From: a bacterium
Lineage (GTDB): Bacteria > UBA8248 > JACPRG01 > G963555815
Assembly: GCA_965261595.1 (NCBI GenBank)
Contig: CBDHDG010000005.1
Coordinates: 448,001 to 512,000, forward strand
Length of the DNA stretch: 64,000 bases
Reading direction: 5' to 3'
Below the pieces are notes generated by a model, which made no database searches, was not told the origin of the DNA, and saw only the letters and a program-made list of their open reading frames with translations. A program made the translations under genes and the position numbers. Positions 19,401-21,716 of this stretch are shown here, in pieces. The first letter of the stretch is position 1. Every line of letters begins with the position of its first letter.

Positions 19401-20061
19401 GTGAACGGTCGAAAAAGATGTGTTGTCCTGGCGGCGGCCCTCCTGTGTTGGGTTCTGGCCGCGGGATTCTTCACGCCGGGGGGGGCGCCGCCCTCGCCGC
19501 GGCGAATCCCAAGCAAGAGCTGAAGGCGTCCATCGATCGGGTGTTGGACGTATTGAGGGATCCGTCCCTGAAGGGCGATGAGCACCGCAAGGCCCGCAGG
19601 CGCAAGTTGTCCGAGATCATTCAGGCGCGTTTCGATTTCGCGGAAATGGGCAAGCGGTCCCTCGCGCGTCAATGGCGGAAAATGAGTCCCGCGGAAAAAA
19701 AGGAATTCATCGGGATTTTCGGCAACCTCCTGCAAGACTCTTATCTGACCAAGATCGAGGCGTTCGCGGACGAGAAGATTGTTTATCCGGCGGAGCGCAT
19801 GGAAGAGCGATACGCCGAGGTCAAGACCAGGATTGTTCAGAAGAGCGGGCGGGCATCGGCATTGATTACAAACTTCACCGGACTCCGGAAGGTTGGCGCG
19901 TCTACGACTTCGTCATCGAAGGCGTGAGCCTGGTGTCGAATTACCGCAAGCAATTCAAGCGACTGATTCGGAAGACCTCTTACAAGGAGCTGATTGCGCG
20001 TATGAAGGTCAAGTATGAAGAGGTCCGGGGCGGTTCCTACGAGAAGGAAAAAACGCTCTAG
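19401..20061 (+). CDS. mlaC: MlaC/Ttg2D phospholipid-binding periplasmic protein (two apparent homopolymer frameshifts)
   Basis: Signal peptide from GTG 19401, then FDFAEMGKRSLARQW in a second frame and IDYKL...WRVYDFVIEGVSLVSNYRKQF in a third. Shifts fall at G runs near 19490 and 19851. Confidence 0.8.
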
Positions 20062-20579: not shown

Positions 20580-21716
20580 ATGATCACCGTCCACATGGAT
20601 GTCGTCGGAAGCCTCCTCAGACCCCCGGAGCTGCTGGGGGCGCGGGAAGACGCGGCCGGGGGGAGGCTCTCGCGGGCCGGGCTCAAGGCAGCCGAGGACC
20701 GGGCGGTGGATGCGGCCGTTGTCCTTCAGGAGAAAGCCGGGCTGGCCGTCGTCACCGACGGGGAAATGCGGCGGCTCTCCTTCCAGTCTCAGATGACCGA
20801 GGCGGTGGAGGGGTTCGGGGAGTGCGGCATCGACGCCTTTCTCTGGGGGGACTGGCGCGGCGATGAAAGGGTCGGGGACAAGGAGATCCGGCGGCCGGCG
20901 TCGCTGGGCGTCGTGGGCAGGCTTCAGCGCAAGCGCCACCTCTCGGCCGAGGAGTTCACGGTCCTTCGCGCGATCACGAGGGGAAAGCCCCTCATTCCCA
21001 AAGTCACCCTTCCCAGCCCGAGTCTCTGGATGAACTTTTGGCCGACGGATCGCCGGGTGGACGCCTATCCGACCCTCGACTCCTTCCTGGCCGACGTCGT
21101 GGATATCCTGCGCGGCGAGGTCGCCGAGCTCGTCCGGTTGGGCGCGACGTACATCCAGATCGACGCGCCCCAATACACGGCCGCGCTGGACCCGAAAGGC
21201 CGGGCCTTTTACGAGTCCCGGGGTTGGAGTGGGGGGGAGAGGGGGGAGGAATGGCTGTCGCGGGGGATCGAGATGGACAACGCCGTCATGGACGGCTTCC
21301 CGGACGTCACCTTCGGCTTTCACCTCTGACGGGGGAACCAGGCCAGCCGGTGGCTGGCCGAGGGCGGCTACGGCCGCATCGCCCGGACCGTTTTCCGGGG
21401 CGTCCGCGCCCAGCGCCTCCTACTCGAATACGACGACGAGCGCTCCGGCGGTTTCGAGCCGCTCAAAGACGCGCCCGAGGACAAGACCGTCGTCCTGGGT
21501 CTTGTCACGACCAAATCGTCCCGCCCGGAGACGGTGGAAGGGCTCTCCGCCCGCGTCCGGGAGGCCGCCCGCTACGTTCCGCTCGAACGGCTGGCCCTGA
21601 GCCCCCAGTGCGGGTTCTCCACGTCCGTTGTCGGAAACCGGATCTCCGCGGAAGAGCAGAAGCGGAAGCTGGAGGTGGTCGCCGAAACGGCCGGGGTGGT
21701 TTGGGGGGCCGGATGA
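20580..21716 (+). CDS. Cobalamin-independent methionine synthase catalytic-domain-like (Meth_synt_2) protein; predicted selenoprotein (TGA 21327-21329 = Sec250)
   Basis: VVGSLLRP, TDGEMRR, YIQIDAP, HL(TGA)RGN, LLEYD, LGLVTTK, LSPQCGF are all in one frame (378 codons); SECIS-like hairpin downstream of the TGA. Confidence 0.9.
21341..21359 (+). promoter_or_regulatory. Putative bacterial SECIS element
   Basis: Perfect 8-bp stem GGCCAGCC-GGT-GGCTGGCC starting after an 11-nt spacer from the in-frame UGA; GU in the apical loop. Confidence 0.8.

Follow-up and report, generated by a model that had tools for sequence, protein, structure and literature searches.

The window, by which we mean the whole 64,000-nucleotide stretch of DNA analysed, carries a gene at 20580..21716 on the forward strand that is interrupted by a TGA. 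Under translation table 11, this interval (+) has one internal stop (FHL*RGN) and a terminal stop. From the ATG at 20580 the frame gives 249 amino acids (aa) under table 11, and 378 aa when TGA is read as selenocysteine (Sec, U). The initial annotation had proposed that the frame continues past the TGA without a further stop to 21716, encoding 378 aa, and translation confirms this. A domain search finds one PF01717 domain in the 378-aa protein, which translation, domain and fold identify as a single-barrel Meth_synt_2 protein of the YxjH/1YPX-like type with one UGA read through. Homologues align with it across residues 1-376. The in-frame TGA lies at 21327..21329 (+) and, from alignment and homologues, is the codon of a predicted selenocysteine, U250, equivalent to Cys643 of Escherichia coli MetE. 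In the window gene, no in-frame ATG, GTG or TTG occurs from the TGA to Glu283. It is almost certain that the apparently truncated gene yields a full-length, methionine-synthase-like enzyme in which Sec replaces a zinc-binding Cys.

The gene stands alone, without an operon partner: its upstream neighbour, an MlaC-like gene, is about 500 bp away, and downstream lies a DinB/MST gene in convergent orientation. The MlaC-like gene (19418-20061, +) consists of two overlapping frames (19418-19927 and 19672-20061), which suggests a frameshift. We found no riboswitch or other credible Rfam match between 19000 and 23000, and no sigma-70-like promoter, terminator directly 3' or informative repeats at the window gene.

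Assembled sequence from elsewhere indicates that the TGA is not an assembly artefact. This check used contigs from 4 of 24 listed runs, that is, assembled contigs rather than raw reads. Contigs from three other studies cover the TGA; they differ from the window at 3 to 5 letters elsewhere and leave the codon unchanged. A contig from an RNA library (X15) also spans the TGA unchanged, which is not proof of transcription. A low-depth, divergent contig in X5 has TGT at this codon and comes from a relative.

Close homologues share the TGA, as the initial annotation had implied they should. Among the matches listed, 83 of the 163 close homologous loci have TGA at the U250 column and the other 80 have TGC or TGT; TGA is present in 41 of the 83 genome loci and 42 of the 80 metagenome loci. 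Close loci are those with at least 55% identity, drawn from two scans (the best 80 of 195 and the best 80 of 227 matches) in which many loci are close kin; the genome set drops one duplicate and includes the window gene. One Cys row is L110, without which the Cys counts drop by one and the claims are unaffected. Neither TAA nor TAG was ever seen at this column in the 163 close loci, and TGA was absent from all 28 more distant rows, some of which are overlapping stretches. Among the matches listed, the TGA loci span at least six named phyla. Their hosts include Poribacteria, Chloroflexota (Dehalococcoidia, Anaerolineales and Caldilineaceae), Acidobacteriota, Latescibacterota, Binatia and other 'Deltaproteobacteria', Desulfobacterales and two genomes from the host's own class.

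The reading frame is conserved on both sides of the TGA. Across 82 genes, identity to the window protein is 67% 5' of the TGA and 65% 3' of it, and 56% of the same-residue codons 3' of the TGA differ synonymously. A second internal stop is absent from 82 of the 83 TGA genes; the sole such case is a Poribacteria copy (L063) with an extra in-frame TGA at residue 130.

Sec and Cys forms interleave in phylogenies. We counted at least 16 changes on a quick tree of 92 rows and at least 19 changes of Sec/Cys label on a FastTree of 168 rows, 11 of them forced by supported branches. The tree sister of the window gene is itself a Cys form, with 75% identity, from a genome of the same family and with the same DinB/RecJ context. 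L122 and L108 form a near-identical natural Sec/Cys pair (branch lengths 0.014 and 0.009), and the cultured bacterium Rubrobacter radiotolerans has a Cys member (WP_041339243.1) that is 59% identical. The share of TGT among Cys genes at column 250 (16/80) is no higher than at Cys344 (30/160). All 120 database proteins listed have Cys at this position, which is not unexpected given that those proteins derive from stop-aware gene calls.

The host encodes the machinery for Sec insertion. In its genome (96.7% complete, 5.6% contamination), all four genes anticipated by the initial annotation were found: selA adjoins selB, selC (tRNA-Sec) scores 72 bits, and selD has an in-frame TGA of its own. Matches to selA turned up in 36 of the 40 other TGA hosts, yet 34 of the 42 Cys hosts have one as well, so the presence of selA is uninformative for discriminating Sec from Cys forms. 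Of the four TGA hosts without a selA match, two have a tRNA-Sec. TGA host G041 has only a partial, below-cut-off selB match, and no selA, selB or tRNA-Sec was found in TGA host G074, a metagenome-assembled genome (MAG) whose completeness is not given.

A predicted SECIS hairpin follows the TGA at 21341..21359 (+), as folding and comparison show. It has the form GGCCAGCC-GGT-GGCTGGCC, with an 8-bp stem, a GGU loop at 21349-21351 and a conserved core at 21344-21356; it starts 11 nt 3' of the TGA, and its loop starts 19 nt 3' of the TGA. The bacterial SECIS model, as set out in the available part of PMC13188914, has a loop of 3 to 9 nt, a stem of 4 to 16 bp, G in the first two loop positions, a spacing of 16 to 37 nt and a minimum free energy (MFE) of at most -7.5. 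The window hairpin agrees with the model as given there (loop 3, stem 8, GGU, spacing 19, -20.1 kcal/mol). Such a fit is weak evidence alone, because a loose bSECIS-like model, used without an energy cut-off, matches 543 of 3000 random TGA triplets of the host genome (48 of 3000 at a stem of at least 8 bp). The folding z score depends on the window chosen, at -3.74 for 60 nt, -1.21 for 41 nt, and -1.42 and -1.85 for about 100 nt. Two other candidate lines of evidence were set aside. Hairpin energy does not serve as proof of a SECIS: over the first 45 nt, TGA genes fold more weakly (mean MFE -13.7) than Cys genes do (-17.3). A strict pattern found once in 167283 TGA triplets is unusable, since it was defined from the window hairpin itself.

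Comparison among homologues shows which part of the hairpin carries signal. The perfect stem and 11-nt spacer described in the initial annotation are present but were over-weighted there: the stem is mostly imposed by codons, and only a loop base splits Sec from Cys genes. The perfect 8-bp stem is peculiar to the window gene, and the shared core is 5 bp. This core is intact in 75/83 TGA genes and 53/80 Cys genes, and Cys genes carry it too because the invariant S-R-W-L codons write the stem. Both outer pairs are intact in 76/83 TGA genes versus 41/80 Cys genes. The loop-forming Arg codon, by comparison, has G or T as its third base in all 83 TGA genes and in 26 of 80 Cys genes, in tests that ignore kinship. 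The genome set gave 41/41 TGA versus 19/42 Cys genes, and a held-out metagenome set, analysed later, gave 42/42 versus 7/38. As background, the CGN codons of these genes end in G or T in 44% (genome) and 41% (metagenome) of cases. G or T at this base yields a G[G/U]U loop, which is the published consensus. With kinship removed, 11 independent pairs were left, of which about 5 lay in the expected direction, 0 in the opposite direction and 6 were tied (median p 0.06). The synonymous loop base is thus a consistent signal discriminating Sec from Cys genes, but not an independently significant one. Covariation is thin: across 30 of the 41 genome TGA loci, pairing is kept in 88% of cells, with both sides changed in 4 of 240.

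The zinc-ligand positions of methionine synthase are retained in the window protein. In an alignment to E. coli MetE, all seven functional residues are kept (U for Cys643), with residue numbering and roles taken from the available part of PMC7857596. The initial annotation had mapped the zinc ligands to H248, U250, E283 and C344, and these align with MetE H641, C643, E665 and C726. By this alignment, His248 (21321..21323, +; invariant), Glu283 (21426..21428, +; invariant) and Cys344 (21609..21611, +) are predicted zinc ligands. The Cys344 codon is TGC or TGT in 160 of 163 loci, is uncovered in 3 and is never TGA. The predicted homocysteine binders are Ser11 (20610..20612, +; MetE Ser433) for the carboxylate, and Glu62 (20763..20765, +; MetE Glu484) and Asp195 (21162..21164, +; MetE Asp599) for the amino group; each is present in 80/80 metagenome loci. 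An AF2 model with Cys placed at residue 250 reached a pLDDT of 86.6 and a pTM of 0.90, and Foldseek ranked 1YPX first, then MesD (3RPD), then MetE. Alignment and fold thus agree in placing Sec where the initial annotation had put it, at a zinc-ligand position, with metal binding itself a prediction.

The nearest known proteins are those of the PRK06520/PRK06233 group, including 1YPX from Listeria monocytogenes, which is both the best sequence match (E 2e-47) and the best fold match (TM 0.73/0.86). YxjH/1YPX-like proteins have the motifs HxCRGN, LEYD and LSPQCGF in common with the window protein. Unlike that family, about half of the loci of the window subfamily have Sec at the H-x-C cysteine. 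The NCBIfam scores fall below both cut-offs (PRK06520, 218.9 < 313; PRK06233, 196.8 < 576), and the window protein therefore represents a separate subfamily. In our literature search, neither a measured activity for 1YPX-type proteins nor biochemistry of the window subfamily was found. Other short methionine-synthase models, which we take to stand for the named Mes families, score far under their cut-offs (PRK04326, 86 < 406 bits; PRK09121, 43 < 392; PRK00957, 32 < 258). By these model scores, the window protein falls outside the named Mes families.

Characterised methionine synthases offer the closest functional comparison. According to the parts of PMC7857596 and PMC7005905 available (with structure 3RPD), the core methionine synthases MesA-MesD likewise have a single barrel and no folate domain. 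On the same partial sources, their zinc ligands H/C/E(D)/C and homocysteine-binding S/E/D are the same as in the window protein, with U replacing the first C; the variant ligands given there are His, Tyr, Asp, Asn or Gly, and none is Sec. MesD (3RPD) is about 20% identical to the window protein. The C-terminal catalytic barrel of E. coli MetE also aligns. Compared with MetE, a tandem-barrel, folate-dependent enzyme, the window protein is half the length, has no folate barrel, is 23% identical and has Sec in place of Cys643. Bacterial selenoproteins with a SECIS inside the reading frame (PMC13188914) also show a UGA at a conserved Cys column, a SECIS just 3' of it, Cys homologues and SelABCD in the host. 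Several families listed there are predicted metal binders, so that Sec binding a metal is not itself new. In formate dehydrogenase (Mo/W) and [NiFeSe] hydrogenases, Sec is a ligand of a redox-active metal, whereas in the window protein the metal is predicted to be a redox-inert, thiol-activating zinc.

Taken as a whole, we conclude with considerable confidence that the gene encodes a YxjH/1YPX-like selenoprotein whose Sec occupies a zinc-ligand position. Directed by the hairpin within the reading frame, SelB and Sec-tRNA(Sec) would decode the UGA at 21327, and we regard Sec decoding at this codon as close to certain. In the H-x-C motif, Sec250 would stand in for Cys and hold the catalytic Zn together with His248, Glu283 and Cys344, a site that alignment and the structural model make likely. 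The Zn would bind and deprotonate a thiol amino acid, most likely homocysteine, held by Ser11, Glu62 and Asp195 as in MetE; the activated homocysteine would then attack a methyl donor to give methionine. By analogy with MetE and the core methionine synthases, methyl transfer from a donor to homocysteine is, on balance, the reaction that we predict. The donor would not be methyl-THF, because the folate barrel is absent. Our leading guess, a tentative one, is a methyl-corrinoid protein loaded from methylated amines.

The host has a MetH-length frame and five PF01717 matches, including four Cys paralogues, with no two-barrel MetE among them. A MetH/BHMT-type domain is present in 76 of 80 host genomes, which makes the enzyme probably auxiliary. 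We compared neighbourhoods at 162 loci with a rough ORF picker (more than 3 kb on both sides in 64), and no neighbour gene was general across them. An MttB methyltransferase occurs near 9/162 loci, two of which also have a RACo-type corrinoid activator; among the neighbour ORFs scanned, there was no corrinoid-binding protein. TauE genes near 19/162 loci, all TGA, look like the synteny of one lineage and were not used. The available parts of PMC7005905 and PMC7857596 describe characterised single-barrel synthases as using methylcobalamin in vitro and probably corrinoid proteins in vivo. In Lactobacillus, as described in the accessible part of PMC6004538, yxjH is under methionine T-box control and rises without methionine, although it belongs to a more distant branch. 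Together, the MttB and sen contexts (sen genes are considered below) and these precedents lead us to favour homocysteine methylation with a non-folate donor. The protein is most likely a putative folate-independent homocysteine methyltransferase, auxiliary to MetH, with a His/Sec/Glu/Cys zinc site. It may serve homocysteine recycling or methyl-group salvage and, in some lineages, hercynine/selenoneine synthesis.

Cys-type paralogues also recur in tandem. In G000, two of them (L024 and L025; G000:C4:812379-814611), with about 52% identity and the motif NNQSKFY, lie downstream of a gene set that resembles xanthine-dehydrogenase-like molybdoenzymes in sequence. The relatives G001 and G006 have two or three tandem copies.

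The role of Sec itself can be addressed only speculatively. Frequent Cys/Sec swapping implies that Sec is optional, and Sec therefore probably tunes the zinc site or guards it against irreversible oxidation. It is improbable, in our view, that Sec250 is instead the nucleophile, with a zinc-bound selenolate taking the methyl group from an unactivated donor (a trimethylammonium, or the S/Se-methyl of hercynine, ergothioneine or selenoneine derivatives) and passing it, via a Se-methyl intermediate, to homocysteine. If true, this would amount to a cobalamin- and folate-free, selenium-based methyl transfer, tied to the turnover of selenometabolites in uncultured bacteria that are widespread.

A different account retains the selenoprotein and dedicates it to selenoneine/ergothioneine metabolism. 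The enzyme would move a methyl group from hercynine, S-methyl-ergothioneine or Se-methyl-selenoneine to homocysteine, or would methylate a selenol (selenohomocysteine). This draws on the presence of selD, senA, senB or egtD beside or around the homologue in 12 loci. In six Poribacteria, selD-senB adjoins the homologue; L071 has selD, L102 a selD fusion with senB and senA, and L089 senA and senB beside the homologue. In L073, egtD and senA flank the gene, and L151 and L152 have egtD upstream (L152 by clustering only). Furthermore, a decayed C-terminal remnant of the family (L231:3294-3620, in G006; 59% identity, internal stop) lies at the end of a cluster of senB, a SenA-like gene and an ABC transporter, and the window's host has both senA and senB. 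Across genomes, senB was found in 24/39 TGA hosts, 13/41 Cys hosts and 14/41 class relatives, and in 11/37 class relatives without the window subfamily. Because two of the 12 linked loci carry Cys, Sec supply cannot by itself account for every linkage. Against this account, the linked loci are only 12 of 162, and senB was not found in 15/39 TGA hosts or in 43/80 hosts overall. In the window's host, senA is 47 kb from the window gene and senB is on another contig; the window itself has no sen cluster. EgtD uses S-adenosylmethionine (SAM) (10.1101/2022.04.13.486033), and ordinary homocysteine recycling could therefore also explain the linkage. On this evidence we consider a dedicated selenoneine role unlikely.

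The host's senA is flanked by IS sequence and lies apart from senB, unlike in G006. A 60-nt IS transposase probe from window position 294 matches the host genome exactly at 170 places.

Alternatively, the selenoprotein could act on a different thiol or alkyl group, by alkylation like that of epoxyalkane:coenzyme M transferase or by C-S cleavage, and make no methionine. Epoxyalkane:coenzyme M transferase is the precedent for such alkylation. The identity to MetE is only 23%, the Anaerolineae-type loci have catabolic-looking neighbours (enolase-type, OCD, AFOR, MAL-like), and the co-occurrence of five PF01717 paralogues with a MetH-length frame in one genome suggests diverged functions. Yet none of the three residues predicted to contact the amino-acid end of homocysteine varies, and the T-box control of the more distant Lactobacillus yxjH also points to methionine. 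We hold this alternative to be doubtful.

The two remaining accounts deny Sec decoding altogether. That the TGA is a true stop, in a split gene, a misassembled one or a pseudogene with a nonsense mutation, could draw on the IS-rich genome, on the hairpins that are common 3' of TGA triplets, on the Cys-only database proteins and on TGA being the commonest stop of the host (1212 of 2051 long coding-like ORFs), where RF2 is present. This reading is very improbable and already largely refuted: TGA recurs in 83 loci across phyla at a column where TAA and TAG never occur, the Cys344 codon is never TGA, the downstream half is conserved like the upstream half, no restart codon precedes Glu283, and other contigs keep the TGA. 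Reassignment of UGA genome-wide (to Trp or Gly), or its decoding as Cys by a non-Sec route, is barely credible: some bacteria do have rare Cys tRNAs that read UGA, and G074 is a TGA host in which no Sec genes were found, but in the window's host TGA terminates most long ORFs, including the window gene, RF2 is present, and the only UCA anticodon among 52 tRNAs is that of tRNA-Sec.

The selenoprotein family, with its MetE-like fold, is apparently unlisted in the catalogues checked. The initial annotation did not recognise a classical selenoprotein family here, and its absence from PMC13188914, deep-Sep and NCBIfam 20.0 bears this out. Table 1 of the 2026 review PMC13188914 (119 families) has no PF01717/MetE-type entry and no H-x-U zinc motif, and its full text does not contain 'methionine synthase' or 'homocysteine'. 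The deep-Sep text and four supplements (PMC12013277) have no MetE-type entry; only MsrA, CobW and BtuF match the terms. The main text of BSepDB (PMC13326102), in its available part, does not mention the family, and the accessible portions of SelCysML (PMC13745706), GapMind 2026 (PMC13759103), PMC8318568 and PMC12366255 have nothing on the family as a selenoprotein. No selenoprotein model was matched in an NCBIfam 20.0 profile search with the window protein. A literature search whose scope ended short of subscription journals and bioRxiv supplements returned no report of a MetE-type selenoprotein.

A widespread family hidden as truncated genes would thus join a list of selenoproteins dominated by thiol oxidoreductases, and would put Sec among the ligands of a zinc predicted to be catalytic and redox-inert. 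Near-identical Sec/Cys pairs such as L122/L108 make the benefit of Sec over Cys testable in a non-redox enzyme. Furthermore, the cultured R. radiotolerans, through its Cys member, provides a handle on the uncharacterised YxjH/1YPX branch.

Selenium-related genes near the homologues had features of their own. The selD that follows the homologue in Poribacteria (L059, L062 and L072, near 5700) is a TGA-containing form (TCG*AAK); between the two genes lies a conserved small ORF, about 77-88 aa long and with no Pfam match. Just downstream of a Cys-form homologue, a two-piece GrdB/PrdB-like gene (L186:6202-6981) is probably a selenoprotein split at its UGA. The SenB of two Latescibacterota (L089:7817; L229:5034, in G084) has an in-frame TGA at the same column, which is Ala in Poribacteria SenB; open frame extends in both directions from it, and downstream lies a hairpin whose loop contains AGG. 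This TGA may encode Sec at a site that is not Cys, or be a nonsense change common to both genomes.
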